Shown: piece after piece, positions 1,030 through 7,687 of the stretch
Layout: each line of letters begins with the position of its first letter
How positions within the stretch are numbered: position 1 is the first letter of the stretch
Virus genome (UHGV): UHGV-0107525
DNA: 11,430 bases
Strand: one strand, 5' to 3'
From: a virus
Notes under the pieces: model-generated
Databases searched by the model: none
Told to the model about the DNA's origin: nothing
The model's input: the letters and a program-made list of their open reading frames with translations, nothing else
Translations under genes and position numbers: made by a program

Positions 1030-1421
1030 TGTACGAGACTACAAAATTAAGCATTCACGAAGCCTCCAATGTGGAGTGGAATATCGTTACCTGCAAGATT
1101 GTATCGTGTAATGCTGCCCGAACTGATGCAGGCTATAAGAGCACGATAACAGGCTACATGGTAATGGCTTATAGGGGATTGAGAGTTCGCTTTATCTGGA
1201 AAGCTCGGCAATTGACACCATTCAGAGAGCCGTCAATGCCATTAGAGGTAGAACAGGATTATTTAAGCCTGCCGGAAATAGACGGTGCAACGCTGGTGGA
1301 TTCTGATGGTCGTAAGGCTGATTTTGAAGTCAGCTTAAAGGTGGCGCAGGCCGTAATTAATAACTCACGTGGTAAGTGGATCGCTAAGGTAAAACACGTC
1401 GTTCGCTTATCTCGCTGGTAG
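1029..1421 (+). CDS. Hypothetical protein (130 aa)
   Basis: ORF translationally coupled to the upstream gene (ATGA overlap at 1027-1031). No recognisable motifs. Confidence 0.45.
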   Translation: MYETTKLSIHEASNVEWNIVTCKIVSCNAARTDAGYKSTITGYMVMAYRGLRVRFIWKARQLTPFREPSMPLEVEQDYLSLPEIDGATLVDSDGRKADFEVSLKVAQAVINNSRGKWIAKVKHVVRLSRW

Positions 1422-1529
1422 TGTTAGATAAATGGAATTAATTTTCTAATATAACCAACTTTTTGCCAGTCTATACAGAAATAACATTCTCATTATCATC
1501 CCCTCGGTCATTTCCTGCCCGGGGGATTA

Positions 1530-1922
1530 ATGGAACAAATCAGCAGCGCAGAAATTGCGGATATCATGATCAGGGCTGACTGCTATCTGACAGTCACTGA
1601 AATTACCACTCTAGCTAAAGAAAAATATCCTCACCTTCATGTTTCACGCGTAAGTGTAACCAACATCATTCGGCATTTTGTGCGGTCAAGCCGAGCTATT
1701 TGTGAGCTTGATGATCGTGTTTACCCACGGAAATACTGGTTGCATGGCCTGAACGGATATCAGTTCAAGGTGCGCGGGCGCACCCCTGAATACGGCAGTT
1801 TGCTGGTTAAAAACTGTAGCCGGAAGTCTGCAGAACTGGCGCGACAAGAGCAGCGCAAGCTGGTGGACATGGCTAATAAGCTGTGGAATGCCGCAGTTAA
1901 AAAGCGTGGTGTTGCTTTATGA
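1530..1922 (+). CDS. Putative small DNA-binding protein (winged-helix-like), immediately upstream of and overlapping pacA
   Basis: ATG at 1530 with GGGGGA 4 nt upstream; stop overlaps the pacA ATG (ATGA at 1919-1922). Helix-turn-helix-like segment LTVTEITTLAKEKYPHLHVSRVSVTNIIRHF followed by a wing-like YPRKYWLHGLNGY. P1 has its late-promoter activator lpa in this position, but homology could not be verified. Confidence 0.5.
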   Translation: MEQISSAEIADIMIRADCYLTVTEITTLAKEKYPHLHVSRVSVTNIIRHFVRSSRAICELDDRVYPRKYWLHGLNGYQFKVRGRTPEYGSLLVKNCSRKSAELARQEQRKLVDMANKLWNAAVKKRGVAL

Positions 1923-3283: not shown

Positions 3284-4791
3284 TGGCTGGTGGGCGCAAG
3301 ATTAAATGCGTCACCAGCGATCCACGCTGGCGCGATATGGTAATCAAATACCGCTACAACTTTACCCAGGCTGTTGTTGATATTTTCGGGATGTTTCCCT
3401 CCCACCAGCAGCAGGAGATTATCCAGTCCGTACAGCAAAAAGGGAGCAGAACCACTGTTACTTCTGGTCACGGTACAGGGAAATCGTCGTTAACAGCTAT
3501 GTTGTTGCTGATTTATTTGATTCTGTTCCCCGATGCCCGTGTCATCATTGTTGCTAACAAGATAGGCCAGGTTAAAACAGGGGTATTCAAATACGTTAAA
3601 CAGTATTGGGCGAATGCAGTTAAGCGTCACGGGTGGTTACAGACCTATTTTGTCCTGTCTGACACCATGTTTTATGAACGTTCCCGCAAAGGGATCTGGG
3701 AAGTTCTCTGCAAAGGTTATCGACTCGGTAACGAAGAAGCACTGGCGGGGGAGCACGCGGCACATTTGCTTCTAATTCTGGATGAAGCATCAGGCATATC
3801 TGATAAAGCGATCGGCGTAATGACTGGCGCTCTGACTGAAGAAGATAACCGAATGTTGATGCTATCCCAGCCAACAAGGCCAAGTGGTTATTTCTACGAT
3901 TCGCACCATTCTCAAGCTAAAACCCCAGACAACCCGAAAGGGATCTGGACAGCAATTGTTCTTAACTCAGAAGAATCACCGTTCGTCACACCACAATTCA
4001 TCAGGCAGAAACTCCTGGAATATGGCGGGCGCGATTCTATTGAGTACATGGTCAAGGTTCTTGGTCAGTTTCCTCGGGAGATTAACGGCTATTTGCTTGG
4101 TCGTGATGAATGCGATCGCGCTGCGCGGCGCAAGGTGTTGTTGGAGAAAAACTGGGGATGGGTGGCTACTGCTGACGTTGGTAACGGGCGAGACAAGTCA
4201 GTTCTTAATATCTGTAAAGTGTCTGGTCACCGGGAAAAGCGGCGTGTTGTTAACTTTAAGGTAATGGAAATGCCAGGGACTATGGACCCGCTGGCTTTTG
4301 CTGACTTTATATACAACGAATGCACACCGGATAAATACCCGAATATTACAATCGCGGTTGACGCAGACGGTTTTGGTTCAGATACCTGTGCGCAGCTGGT
4401 GCGCCGTGGGGCTAATCCGGTACGGATTCGGTGGGGGAAACCCATGTTTTCGAACAAAGACAAGGAGCGTTTTGTTAACCAGCGTGCCTACGCAAATATT
4501 ATGGCTCGTGATGCCATAAAGTCAGGTCGTATGCGAATAGACAGCGACCCTAAAACGGCAGAGCAAGCGTCAAAAATCCCCTTTTTACTTAATGAAGAAG
4601 GGAAGATGGCGATGATGCGCAAGGAGCACATGCGGCAAAAGCTGAACATCAAATCACCTGACCGATGGGATACCTACTGCTTTACAATGCTGGTGGACTA
4701 TGTTCCTGCTAATGAAGATATCGGCGCTGAAATGGCTACCTTCCGCGATCAGGTTCTTGCAGATGTGGAAATGCCAGATCTGGATATATAA
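3283..4791 (+). CDS. pacB: Terminase large subunit PacB-like (ATPase plus nuclease)
   Basis: 502 aa. Walker A-like TSGHGTGKSS, Walker B-like LLLILDEASG, and C-terminal acidic clusters typical of the RNase H-like terminase nuclease domain (VATADVGNGRD, IAVDADGFGSD). Immediately follows pacA. Confidence 0.9.
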   Translation: MAGGRKIKCVTSDPRWRDMVIKYRYNFTQAVVDIFGMFPSHQQQEIIQSVQQKGSRTTVTSGHGTGKSSLTAMLLLIYLILFPDARVIIVANKIGQVKTGVFKYVKQYWANAVKRHGWLQTYFVLSDTMFYERSRKGIWEVLCKGYRLGNEEALAGEHAAHLLLILDEASGISDKAIGVMTGALTEEDNRMLMLSQPTRPSGYFYDSHHSQAKTPDNPKGIWTAIVLNSEESPFVTPQFIRQKLLEYGGRDSIEYMVKVLGQFPREINGYLLGRDECDRAARRKVLLEKNWGWVATADVGNGRDKSVLNICKVSGHREKRRVVNFKVMEMPGTMDPLAFADFIYNECTPDKYPNITIAVDADGFGSDTCAQLVRRGANPVRIRWGKPMFSNKDKERFVNQRAYANIMARDAIKSGRMRIDSDPKTAEQASKIPFLLNEEGKMAMMRKEHMRQKLNIKSPDRWDTYCFTMLVDYVPANEDIGAEMATFRDQVLADVEMPDLDI

Positions 4792-4812
4792 AGCCCCGGC
4801 AATGCGGGGCTT
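4791..4812. terminator. Hairpin between convergent pacB and the - strand 345-aa gene (likely bidirectional terminator)
   Basis: AAGCCCCG-gcaatg-CGGGGCTT: 8-bp perfect stem with 6-nt loop directly after the pacB stop and 5 nt before the stop of the convergent gene. No strong T-run on either side. Confidence 0.55.
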
Positions 4813-4816
4813 GTGA

Positions 4817-5854
4817 TTACCAGAGTTTAGCGGCGTGCTGTGTTTGGGAGAAAGTGAACCCGTAACGTTCTTCTATGGTTTTACCGTATCTTTTCCGCGC
4901 GTCTGTCAGTTTTATGCCTGTCAGGTCATCTCCGGATGTCATCATTACGTCTAACAACTCCAGATCCATTTTATTCAGTCGCGCCATCGCTTCGCGTGCT
5001 GTCTGTATTTTACGCTCAATGATATGGCGAATAGCCGGATCGGCTTCCTCAAGCATTTTGGCTGATTTGTTCTTTAAGCTCTCATTGCGGATGTCGATGT
5101 TTCGCAAGATGTATGACTTCGCAACATAGCTTGGTTGGTGTTTCTCCAGATCGCGAACGCGATAGAGACTAAAGTCACCAAGCAGGCCGCAAGGTATCGA
5201 CTCAACCCCAGAATAAATAGTAATGCTGCGACGTTCGCCGACATTATTAACAACGGGCACTGTGGTGTTCGGAAGTTTTGCGAACACTAAGGCTCCGTGT
5301 GCGCCTACCCTGAATCGTGACAGAGCATTGCTGCCTTCAATGTTTGTTGTAAGCACTACATCTGTGTATCCATCTTTGCGCGCCCGGTAAACTTCCCCTT
5401 CAGGTTCTGATGCGAAAAAACGGCGCTCTTCTTCAAGTGCACCAACAATCTGCGAAAATATCTTGTTTTTCAGGCTTTTCTTTATAATTGCATCATATTT
5501 TTTGAGCAGATTTTCGCGCGTAAATGAGCGGGTGGTGGTCGCGCTTTGCACAACAATATGCGTGCTTTGATTTGTGTCCTCGATAATGAATGGGATCGGA
5601 GAATATACAGACTCAACAATGTTAGACGCTTTGCCGTCAGCGTTACGGCACAAGTCAACAAAGGCTTTCCATTCTGTGAGGCACTTTTCAGCTTCTTCTA
5701 GCACATTCTGATCATGTGTTAGTGCAACATGGCGGAATTCCTCGCCGGAATAACTGGTATCATGGAAAACAGAGTTTGCGACCACCAGCTCTTTCCACCG
5801 TTCAGCGGTTTGCAGGAACCGTTTGTACTCTTTCTCGATCGACTTCTTACTCAT
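4817..5854 (-). CDS. Hypothetical 345-aa protein in the position of the P1 c1 immunity repressor (possible C1-type repressor)
   Basis: Long - strand ORF convergent with pacB, AGGA-type RBS 4-5 nt upstream of the ATG (RC of 5852-5854). Placement between pacB and the lox-type site/recombinase matches P1 c1. The functional call is by synteny only; no recognisable HTH. Confidence 0.4.
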   Translation of the reverse strand: MSKKSIEKEYKRFLQTAERWKELVVANSVFHDTSYSGEEFRHVALTHDQNVLEEAEKCLTEWKAFVDLCRNADGKASNIVESVYSPIPFIIEDTNQSTHIVVQSATTTRSFTRENLLKKYDAIIKKSLKNKIFSQIVGALEEERRFFASEPEGEVYRARKDGYTDVVLTTNIEGSNALSRFRVGAHGALVFAKLPNTTVPVVNNVGERRSITIYSGVESIPCGLLGDFSLYRVRDLEKHQPSYVAKSYILRNIDIRNESLKNKSAKMLEEADPAIRHIIERKIQTAREAMARLNKMDLELLDVMMTSGDDLTGIKLTDARKRYGKTIEERYGFTFSQTQHAAKLW

Positions 5855-5872
5855 TATTCCTACTCGATTTAG

Positions 5873-5881
5873 TTTTCTAAC
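5873..5881. repeat. Copy of repeated motif (A/T)TTTCTAAC, candidate repressor operator, upstream of the 345-aa gene
   Basis: TTTTCTAAC lies 19 bp upstream of the - strand start codon. Related copies at 5958-5966 (inverted), 6048-6059, 7272-7283 and 1438-1449. Confidence 0.3.
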
Positions 5882-6047
5882 ATAAAATTACTATGACAAA
5901 TCTATGCCGAATAACAGGGTGAGTAAAGGATCAAGATGTGTTTTTTTATCATCAAATTTAGAAAATTCCGCCTAAAAACTGCCTGGCATAACTTAAAGCC
6001 CACACCATCAATGCATTGCCCATCTGCGCGGAAAGGAAAAAATTTCC

Positions 6048-6059
6048 TAAATTTCTAAC
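6048..6059. repeat. Copy of 12-bp motif TAAATTTCTAAC abutting the rox-like site
   Basis: Identical 12-mer also at 7272-7283; 9-bp core shared with 5873-5881. Confidence 0.3.
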
Positions 6060-6087
6060 TTTAGATAATTGGCATTATTTAAAGTTA
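6056..6087. other. rox-type recombination site (Dre target; lox analogue)
   Basis: TAACTTTAGATAAT-TGGC-ATTATTTAAAGTTA: 14-bp inverted arms around a 4-bp spacer. The reverse complement matches the rox site as I recall it (TAACTTTAAATAATGCCAATTATTTAAAGTTA) at 31 of 32 positions, with one arm mismatch. Lies 152 bp upstream of the Cre-family recombinase gene. Confidence 0.85.
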
Positions 6088-6096
6088 GTATATAAT
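6069..6096 (+). promoter_or_regulatory. Sigma70-like promoter overlapping the rox spacer and right arm, directed toward the recombinase gene
   Basis: -35 TTGGCA (6069-6074), 16-bp spacer, -10 TATAAT (6091-6096). Two GATC sites follow at 6100-6103 and 6109-6112. A second -35-like TTGACA at 6116-6121 has only a weak -10. Confidence 0.45.
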
Positions 6097-6239
6097 AATG
6101 ATCAAACGATCAGTATTGACAGACTCAAAAAGTCATGGTTCGAATCAAGGGCTTAAATTTTAAATTCTCACGGATAACTAGCCTGTCATTTTTTGTTTTT
6201 TCGCGTAGCGACACCAATTTATAGAGGTGAAATGATTAC

Positions 6240-7268
6240 ATGAGTAAACTTATTATCTCCGGTAATCCTGGCATGTTTCTTCGTGATATTGGTGCTGAGT
6301 ACCAGGAAGCCGCCAAAAATTTCATGCAGTTCCTTAATGACCAGGGCGCTTACTCACCTAATACACTGCGCGATCTGCGCTTGGTCTTTCACTCCTGGGC
6401 GCGTTGGTGCCACGCTCGTGGTATTGCGTGGTTTCCGATCTCCCCGGAAGCTGCCCGCGAATACCTGCTTCAACTGCATGATGCGGATCTGGCTTCAACC
6501 ACCATTGAAAAGCATTACGCCATGCTCAATATGCTGTTGTCACAATGCGGACTGCCGCAACTCTCTGATGACAAAAGCGTATCCCTGGCGATGCGGCGCA
6601 TCCGGCGCGAAGCTGCAACCGAAAAAGGCGAACGCACAGGCCAGGCTATACCGTTGCGGTGGGATGATCTGAAATGGCTCGACGTGTTGCTGTCCCGTTC
6701 CGAGCGGCTGGTGGACCTGCGCAACCGGGCGTTTCTCTTCGTGGCATACAATACCCTGTTGCGTATGGCTGAAATGTCCCGCGTGCGTGTTCGCGATCTG
6801 GAACAGACTGGTGACACTGTAACGCTTCACGTATCCCACACCAAAACCATCACGACCGCCGCCGGACTTGATAAGGTGCTCTCCCTCCGGACAACTGCGG
6901 TTCTCAATGACTGGCTGGACGAGTCCGGACTACGTGATCACCCGGATGCGATACTTTTCCCGCCAGTACACCGGAGCAACAAAGCGCGGATCACCACCAC
7001 GCCACTAACCGCGCCCGCGATGGAGAAGATTTTCAGTGACGCCTGGGCGCTGCTTGGTAAGAGTGATGCCACCCCAAATAAAGGCCGTTACCGGACGTGG
7101 ACAGGCCACAGTGCGCGTGTTGGTGCCGCCATAGATATGGCTGAAAAACAGGTGTCTTTGGTTGAAATTATGCAGGAAGGTACATGGAAGAAGCCCGAAA
7201 CACTGATGCGTTATCTTCGTCGTGGCGGTGTGACAGCAGGTGCCAATAGCCGCCTCATGGATTCATGA
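6240..7268 (+). CDS. dre: Cre-family tyrosine recombinase, Dre-like
   Basis: 342 aa. Aligns along its length to P1 Cre as recalled, with conserved blocks (FPISPE, AFLFVAYNTLLRMAE vs Cre AFLGIAYNTLLRIAE, WTGHSARVGAA vs WSGHSARVGAA) and catalytic Arg, His-x-x-Arg, Trp and Tyr (LMRYLRR) in place. GAGGTG RBS 10 nt upstream. Adjacent rox-type site supports Dre. Confidence 0.92.
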   Translation: MSKLIISGNPGMFLRDIGAEYQEAAKNFMQFLNDQGAYSPNTLRDLRLVFHSWARWCHARGIAWFPISPEAAREYLLQLHDADLASTTIEKHYAMLNMLLSQCGLPQLSDDKSVSLAMRRIRREAATEKGERTGQAIPLRWDDLKWLDVLLSRSERLVDLRNRAFLFVAYNTLLRMAEMSRVRVRDLEQTGDTVTLHVSHTKTITTAAGLDKVLSLRTTAVLNDWLDESGLRDHPDAILFPPVHRSNKARITTTPLTAPAMEKIFSDAWALLGKSDATPNKGRYRTWTGHSARVGAAIDMAEKQVSLVEIMQEGTWKKPETLMRYLRRGGVTAGANSRLMDS

Positions 7269-7271
7269 GAT

Positions 7272-7283
7272 TAAATTTCTAAC
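7272..7283. repeat. Second copy of 12-bp motif TAAATTTCTAAC, between dre and the downstream operon
   Basis: Exact 12-bp match to 6048-6059, located 4 bp after the dre stop. Confidence 0.3.
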
Positions 7284-7342
7284 ACACCTTTTTAGATTGT
7301 TATCTTTGCTGTAAAGTACCCTCTCCTATTTCGGAGGGTGCT

Positions 7343-7687
7343 TTGCAGAGTCAAATCACGGAATCAAGACGCTTTAAGGTTGATGGTTACACCGTAACCT
7401 TCGCCGCTGGTGTTAAGAACAGTCATGCTGTCGTTGTATTTGGCATCATGACCGGACTTGAGGCCGTCCCTGTGTTTACCCTCGAAAAAAACTGGCGAAA
7501 TCTGGAGGAAGCGGAAAGCTACGTCCGGAGAGTAACCATCGCTGCCGCCGAAAAACTCCTGTCCCACTATCAGGAAAATTATCGCACTATGGTCGAGAAG
7601 ATTAATCTCGCTTTCACTCGCCCCACTACAGGCTTTATCGCCCCGGAGACTAATGCAGGTCGCTATCCTGCAAGGGGGCGTCGGTGA
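7343..7687 (+). CDS. Hypothetical protein (114 aa), first gene of the accessory operon
   Basis: ORF from a TTG start with GGAGGG 4 nt upstream; stop overlaps the next gene's GTG start. The start codon is uncertain. The antisense ORF 7364-7702 is less likely given operon polarity. Confidence 0.4.
   Translation: MQSQITESRRFKVDGYTVTFAAGVKNSHAVVVFGIMTGLEAVPVFTLEKNWRNLEEAESYVRRVTIAAAEKLLSHYQENYRTMVEKINLAFTRPTTGFIAPETNAGRYPARGRR

Follow-up and report, generated by a model that had tools for sequence, protein, structure and literature searches.

Which protein recognises a short AT-rich word that recurs at the gene junctions around the immunity gene of a P1-family phage-plasmid? The word, TTTCTAAC, was noticed in an 11,430-nucleotide (nt) stretch of the UHGV virus genome UHGV-0107525 (the whole of which is called the window here), and an earlier note proposed that its copies are dispersed, asymmetric operators for a 345-amino-acid (aa) protein encoded beside one of them. 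The window is the lpa-pacA-pacB-c1-rox-dre-orf2-orf3-dut segment of a D6-like, P1-family phage-plasmid, and the 345-aa protein is the product of its c1-type gene at 4817-5854. The repeated TTTCTAAC motif is real. With a probability of about 0.8, it forms the core of the operator to which this C1-type prophage repressor binds. The reading is favoured because of the enrichment of the motif, its intergenic placement, its footprints out to a relative whose C1 is 42% identical, its P1-like positions, its co-variation with C1 type, and the remote homology of the protein to P1 C1. From these comparisons of sequence, we infer both that C1 binds the motif and that binding represses. Enrichment, conservation, placement and co-variation thus support the proposal of dispersed operators, which is doubtful for two of the copies that it listed.

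A motif family enriched between genes

In the window, the nonamer WTTTCTAAC occurs exactly at 5873-5881, 6051-6059 and 7275-7283 (three copies against 0.24 expected), a count that one in 200 shuffled sequences reached. The 12-mer TAAATTTCTAAC is found exactly at both 6048-6059 and 7272-7283, as had been claimed, while a related word, TAATTTTCTAAT, lies at 1439-1450 and TTAGAAAAT at 5958-5966. All five copies listed earlier therefore exist, the one correction being a shift of 1 nt for the copy near lpa, which had been placed at 1438-1449. Relaxed to WTTTCTAAY, the motif has four copies, all of them within the 1,274 base pairs (bp) of intergenic DNA and none in the roughly 10 kilobases (kb) of coding DNA. 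When Markov-1 and Markov-2 models of the same AT-rich intergenic DNA of the window were used for simulation, the mean was 0.09-0.14 copies, and none of 5,000 runs reached four. A frequency no higher than that of AT-rich intergenic DNA would, according to the earlier note, have refuted the proposal, and a clear excess was found.

The plainest alternative is that the copies are a chance word in AT-rich intergenic DNA. Taken alone, the pair of identical 12-mers is indeed unremarkable, and the copy adjacent to rox, the site for the recombinase Dre, is probably such a case. A generic repeat finder returned many chance-level repeats of 12-15 nt in the window, the motif family being too short to appear among them. 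A further match, TGAATTGCTAAC at 2455-2466 inside pacA, was set aside as chance, being coding and below the 5-bit threshold introduced below. By estimate, chance alone would give about four such pairs of identical 12-mers in 11.4 kb; it is the motif family, and not the pair, that is significant. For the family, however, the composition-matched simulations never reached the observed count, the motif supplies the top 10-mer in two relatives, and its core is invariant. As a general account, chance is hardly credible: it is refuted for the motif family and is likely only for the copy at 6048-6059.

Whole genomes were scanned without a prior motif for two relatives, phage D6 and pCUVET16-559.2, the closest complete plasmid (its C1 is 99.7% identical to that of the window). 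After Chi, the most over-represented word was TTTTCTAACA in both, with 10 copies versus 0.29 expected in D6 and 9 versus 0.30 in pCUVET16-559.2, so that the enrichment also holds in a whole phage genome. In D6, 11 of the 13 copies of TTTCTAAC fall within the intergenic 10.2% of the genome; composition-matched simulation of intergenic copies gave 0.41 expected and a maximum of three in 1,000 runs.

Alignment of the 13 D6 copies extended the motif to an asymmetric consensus of about 19 nt, a.aTTAr(T/A)TTTCTAACAyA, and its information profile reveals no internal dyad. The unit is accordingly about 19-22 nt long, and not 9-12 nt as first described. A position-weight matrix (PWM) was built from the same 13 sites and yielded 15 strong sites in D6 and 13 in pCUVET16-559.2. 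Next to these sites, or downstream of them, are c1, lpa, pmgS/pmgR, the c4-icd-ant region, repL and orf52. Further sites are found at hrdC, pdcB, the divergent ref/orf88 junction, orf86 and orf117, the last being the first gene after dre. Both hrdC and pdcB have a paired site, and at several sites an inverted second copy, GTTAGAnAA, is located at a fixed offset of 16 nt. This inverted offset of -16 recurs at the hrdC sites of D6 and pCUVET16-559.2 and at the pdcB sites of D6.

Two known elements were considered and rejected as the identity of the motif. One is the -22 box of P1 late promoters, (A/T)GTGACTT; the boxes of P1 LPpac and LPmat, ATGTGACTT and AAGTGACTT, are unrelated to TTTCTAAC, and the motif precedes lpa itself as well as early-type genes. 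The other is the 32-bp inverted repeat of rox, TAACTTTAAATAAT-NNNN-ATTATTTAAAGTTA, which only the copy at 6048-6059 touches, through the outer TAAC. The scans also brought out words of other kinds. An 8-mer of the D6 genome, TGTGATTT (17 copies versus 3.8 expected), resembles the P1 -22 box and could be the D6 late-promoter box. Chi, GCTGGTGG, is strongly enriched in D6, pCUVET16-559.2 and the Pantoea plasmid pPSP-26e, with 53-89 occurrences on both strands versus 7-12 expected.

Individual sites around c1, lpa and dre

Only four positions in the window score at least 5 bits with the PWM. Conservation was followed in six aligned relatives, down to Enterobacter pJBIWA008_2, whose C1 is the 42% identical one. 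The sites and look-alikes, together with the c1-type gene and its candidate promoter, are as follows.

1418-1439, minus strand: inverted partner half-site of the putative lpa operator, minus-strand AATTCCATTTATCTAACACTAC; PWM 11.2 bits
1434-1455, plus strand: strong operator-like site before lpa, GGAATTAATTTTCTAATATAAC, with its core TTTTCTAAT at 1442-1450; PWM 22.8 bits
4817-5854, minus strand: c1-type repressor gene (345 aa), presumed motif binder, assigned by similarity to D6 C1
5865-5886, plus strand: strongest operator-like site, CGATTTAGTTTTCTAACATAAA, with its core at 5873-5881; PWM 27.8 bits
5899-5927, minus strand: candidate c1 promoter, with -35 TTTACT at 5927-5922, a 17-nt spacer and -10 TAGATT at 5904-5899
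5957-5966, minus strand: degenerate inverted copy, minus-strand ATTTTCTAAA; PWM -8
6048-6059, plus strand: look-alike copy abutting rox, TAAATTTCTAAC; below the 5-bit PWM threshold, about 2 bits by hand
7267-7288, plus strand: strong operator-like site between the dre stop codon and the orf2-orf3-dut operon, GAGATTAAATTTCTAACACACC, with its core at 7275-7283; PWM 20.7 bits

The site at 5865-5886 is 18 nt away from the c1 ATG, in inverted orientation relative to c1. In the six relatives, Enterobacter included, 14 of its 21 columns are invariant, and of all the listed copies this one, before the 345-aa gene, scores highest. It is a candidate autoregulatory operator of c1. The candidate c1 promoter was called by a relaxed sigma-70 scan (8 of 12 matches) and not by a stricter one, and both of its hexamers fall in columns conserved across alignment A1. 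Relative to this promoter, 5865-5886 would span about +6 to +27, where bound C1 would form a block and thereby exert negative autoregulation.

The copy between dre and the accessory operon is strong and conserved too. Its core, A.TTTCTAA.A, is invariant in the same relatives, and at both this site and the one before c1 the flanks diverge around invariant cores. Downstream of the site, a conserved CTGTAAAGTAC element follows after about 35-40 nt and orf2 after about 60 nt, and the site would guard the orf2-orf3-dut accessory operon downstream of dre.

The earlier note had also recorded a copy upstream of the gene preceding pacA. That gene is lpa, as identified by the Pfam family BPP1_LPA, and the copy belongs to a strong site whose TTTCTAA core is shared with the D6, E. 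fergusonii, Shigella and Enterobacter relatives; in P1, the operator Olpa occupies the same junction. What had been overlooked is the inverted partner, with its plus-strand core GTTAGATAA at 1423-1431, which by its 16-nt offset makes the lpa site bivalent. The Shigella counterpart is a near-perfect pair, GTTAGAAAT-N10-ATTTCTAAC. The bivalent site at 1418-1455 would guard the gene for the late-gene activator and hold lpa off in the lysogen.

The two remaining copies are doubtful look-alikes, in contrast to these three convincing ones. The inverted copy at 5958-5966 is present as described, but it is degenerate. TTTTCTAA is kept at 5957-5966 in D6, E. fergusonii and Shigella, and Enterobacter has a full TTTTCTAAC about 10 nt from this position. 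The degenerate copy may be an auxiliary operator of low affinity; it would be situated at about -65 to -74, upstream of the candidate c1 promoter, and may assist, for example through looping as described for P1. The copy abutting rox exists too, but probably not as an operator. At 6048-6059, the 5' half and core of the motif are present and the 3' half is missing, a T replaces the A found in 13 of 13 D6 seed sites, and the last four bases, TAAC, are the outer end of the rox arm. Nor is the copy conserved: D6 has TTTTATAAC, Enterobacter TTCCTAAC and Shigella CCTTCTAAC in its place, and its mean column identity is 0.69 versus an alignment mean of 0.75. It is probably a chance look-alike.

Taken as operators, these sites would form part of a set of asymmetric elements of about 19-22 bp, present in some 13-15 copies over D6-type genomes and almost all intergenic, through which C1 would act on promoters like P1 C1, occupying or blocking them, and so keep lytic genes off. 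The same layout could be read otherwise, the motif being a promoter or transcript-start element common to early genes, derived from promoter ancestry or recognised by an RNA polymerase-associated factor. Several sites show a TTAGAn-N16/17-TAAYAY geometry or a -10-like hexamer at a fixed distance downstream, and the intergenic position of the sites would suit such an element. Yet the invariant part, TTTCTAACA, fits neither sigma-70 hexamer, and the upstream TTAGA is better read as the inverted motif copy GTTAGAnAA at its fixed 16-nt offset. Furthermore, sites are found in either orientation and at gene 3' ends as well, and the motif changes between lineages that have the same host RNA polymerase. 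A promoter element is thus a quite improbable substitute for the C1 operator.

Co-variation with C1 type and the nature of the presumed repressor

Bacteriophage P1 offers the natural comparison. Its C1 acts at 22 dispersed operators, whose 17-bp consensus, ATTGCTCTAATAAATTT, is asymmetric, and repL and lpa are among the genes that it represses (PMC8546580). Annotated C1 operators in the P1 record include Olpa before lpa, Oc1a-e between c1 and lox, and Oref and Omat downstream of cre. P1 and the D6 type have in common an asymmetric operator, or predicted operator, of similar length with a TCTAA(T/C) core, many copies at intergenic junctions, and both single and paired (bivalent) sites. The D6-type sites at c1, lpa and ref and upstream of repL mirror P1 operators by position only. 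Outside the shared core the sequence differs, as the earlier note had stated: the P1 consensus is not matched, and the window holds no copy of TGCTCTAA. The paired sites differ as well, being divergent with a 16-nt offset in the D6 type, whereas P1 Oc1a/b are convergent and overlapping.

The immC region of phage D6 (AY753669; genome MF356679) has the same gene order as the window and the same motif at orthologous places, and differs in its C1 allele, in one base of rox, and in having no rox-adjacent look-alike. Operators are annotated in neither of these two GenBank records. A full-text literature search for the motif words and for D6-like operators, the scope of which fell short of the original D6 papers, returned nothing relevant.

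When the lineages are compared, the core follows the type of C1: it is TGCTCTAAT in P1, TTTCTAAC in the D6 type and ATTCTAAA in the Pantoea type. The word TGCTCTAA has five copies in 12.3 kb of P1 and 0-1 elsewhere, D6 and pCUVET16-559.2 included. Conversely, TTTCTAAC has 13-14 copies in D6 and pCUVET16-559.2, one in Pantoea and none in the P1 pieces, and ATTCTAAA has 13 copies in Pantoea pPSP-26e (C1 29% identical) and one each in D6 and pCUVET16-559.2. An unbiased scan of pPSP-26e recovered ATTCTAAAT (nine copies versus 0.19 expected), and the Pantoea copies are placed analogously, with copies behind the recombinase gene and ahead of c1 and a pair ahead of the hrdC homologue. In Enterobacter, TTTTCTAAY is kept but its 3' flanks differ. 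Since Lpa and the host RNA polymerase are common to these lineages and C1 is the partner that has diverged, C1 is the most parsimonious binder. Other words are hugely over-represented in pPSP-26e too, namely TGTTTATAAA / GTTTATAAAC, with 16 copies each versus about 0.16 expected, and ATGTTTGCAA / GTTTGCAAAC, with 12-13 copies.

Could another phage regulator, such as a Rha/KilA/Roi-type 'antirepressor' or an unannotated small regulator, bind the motif in place of C1? D6-type genomes do encode two Rha/Roi/KilA-like proteins, and motif sites also stand beside two icd-ant modules. Against such a regulator, the best site of the window lies next to the c1 start codon, the site set mirrors the P1 C1 operators, and the motif flavour tracks C1 divergence over the P1, D6-type, Enterobacter and Pantoea lineages. 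We therefore regard it as improbable and retain C1 as the presumed binder.

The 345-aa protein is, by profile comparison, a remote homologue of P1 C1. It shares 89.6% identity with D6 C1, annotated as 'phage repressor protein', and 100% with C1 as encoded by plasmids NZ_CP034790 and NZ_AP027678. P1 C1 is reached by blastp with 20% identity (E 6e-8) and by hhalign with a probability of 97.6% (E 2.9e-12, 229 columns, residues 7-241). The window protein has a helical C-terminal extension and is thus longer than P1 C1, at 345 versus 283 aa with about 20% identity. The family is small, comprising 104 clusters at E <=1e-3 among 1.84 billion representatives, and most members are 250-290 aa long and match the first ~245 residues. 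A Pfam search of the protein found no families, and PHROGs matched it only to a family of 'unknown function'. No C1 family member was found among solved structures by PDB sequence searches, including a profile search, and a BFVD fold search with the C1 model gave no matches.

Several points weigh against the operator interpretation. The NCBIfam model phage_rep_C1 matches the protein with E 3.8e-5 and 23 bits versus a cut-off of 500 bits, which is not an equivalog match, and the C1 function is therefore drawn from remote homology and synteny. The co-variation is based on three or four lineages, and the sites differ in how they are oriented towards the nearest gene. Of the five listed copies, two (5958-5966 and 6048-6059) fail the extended motif. 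Overlapping the lpa and orf2 sites there are weak sigma-70 candidates only. The conserved candidate c1 promoter and a dre promoter embedded in rox are the only promoters that look credible, those of lpa and orf2 being ambiguous.

A lead on how such a protein might recognise long asymmetric sites came from structure prediction. An AlphaFold2 model of the 345-aa protein, made from a 12-sequence alignment, has a mean predicted local distance difference test (pLDDT) score of 83.6 and a predicted template modelling (pTM) score of 0.51. Foldseek against solved structures returned four matches at E <=1e-3, all of which are E. coli Tus, the replication terminus site-binding protein, bound to Ter DNA (E 1e-7 to 7e-6, probability 1.00), with modest template modelling (TM) scores of 0.38-0.43. 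Tus binds Ter sites as a monomer, and P1 C1 likewise acts as a monomer. Both proteins have asymmetric sites of about 20 bp (23 bp for Ter; predicted sites for C1), and TerB is found 12 nt upstream of the tus ATG, a spacing similar to the 18 nt between the best predicted C1 site and the c1 ATG. At the sequence level, hhalign of the C1 family versus Tus was not significant, with probabilities of 0.3% for a 12-sequence profile and 5.2% for a 78-sequence profile, and neither the PDB profile search nor the Pfam search of C1 gave any match. Among the papers searched, none links C1 with Tus. The Tus-like fold suggested by the model is a lead and not a finding. Somewhat short of even odds, it is possible that the P1/D6 C1 family is built on a Tus fold and not as a helix-turn-helix dimer and, alongside, that the D6-type consensus with its regulon of about 14 sites is a newly defined immunity specificity.

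Surroundings of the locus and meaning of the predicted operators

The neighbourhood of the predicted operators fits a widespread type of element. Window positions 4700-7500 are 82% identical at the nucleotide level to D6, whose record annotates c1, rox and dre. For the same region, identity is about 90% to a large number of plasmids from E. coli, Shigella and Salmonella; over the whole window it reaches ~95-96%, and 194 PLSDB plasmids match the window region. Three further features bear on the arrangement.

1530-1922, plus strand: lpa, late-promoter activator (Pfam BPP1_LPA, E 2.2e-55; D6 annotation)
6056-6087, no strand assigned: rox site for Dre, TAACTTTAGATAATTGGCATTATTTAAAGTTA (D6 rox annotation, alignment A1 and position)
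6069-6096, plus strand: strong sigma-70-like promoter, TTGGCA, 16 nt, TATAAT (11 of 12 matches)

The single base that separates the window rox from D6 rox is an A-to-G change in the left arm. The promoter at 6069-6096 aims at dre, with its -35 TTGGCA inside rox and its -10 TATAAT just to the right of it. Between c1 and the recombination site (5855-6055), equivalents of P1 coi and imcA/B are absent, and only spurious-looking open reading frames (ORFs) of <=46 aa occur between c1 and dre; the immC region of the window is much simpler than that of P1. Lxc, moreover, has been reported as undetected in the D6-like plasmid pYU39_89 (PMC6799933).

Matches to the window that are confined to the right side of rox come from about 60 plasmids, with 62 records in the 95-99% identity band, and conjugative IncFIB resistance plasmids are among them. 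These plasmids carry rox-dre-phd/doc fragments that are 96-98% identical to the window from ~6053 onward, while the c1 side is nearest to another plasmid group. A match breakpoint at or near rox points to mosaicism by recombination there. Plasmid pQnrS1_005237, for instance, has only the rox-dre side in common with the window and is uninformative for C1.

Two observations concern the lpa end of the window. At 1500-1529, directly ahead of the lpa start codon, there is a GC-rich hairpin, CCCCTCGG...CCCGGGGG, that might mask the ribosome-binding site. This hairpin is kept in D6, E. fergusonii and Shigella, and the Enterobacter changes are apparently compensatory (alignment A2). An Rfam scan of the window found no RNA families. 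The ORF at 454-1029 has a Tad2-like (Thoeris anti-defence 2) domain (Pfam PF11195, E 2.9e-9) and is annotated as 'MW1434 family type I TA system toxin' in relatives.

As judged from the motif and its distribution, the predicted D6-type operators would be a new specificity within the known P1-type C1 immunity system. D6-like phage-plasmids are common, being widespread in E. coli and Salmonella, and are the source of the Dre/rox tool. For these elements, the operator consensus predicts a C1 regulon that includes lpa, repL, c1, ref, hrdC and pdcB as well as the accessory operon that follows dre. It may also serve for immunity typing and could provide orthogonal repressor/operator parts for engineering; four flavours of C1 were seen, and each goes with an operator flavour of its own. 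If the fold lead is true, a Tus fold would account for the length and asymmetry of C1 operators and for their ability to work singly. It would also connect an immunity repressor with Tus, raise the question of whether C1-operator complexes act as polar barriers to replication or transcription, and give new mechanistic insight into a classic, poorly understood repressor.

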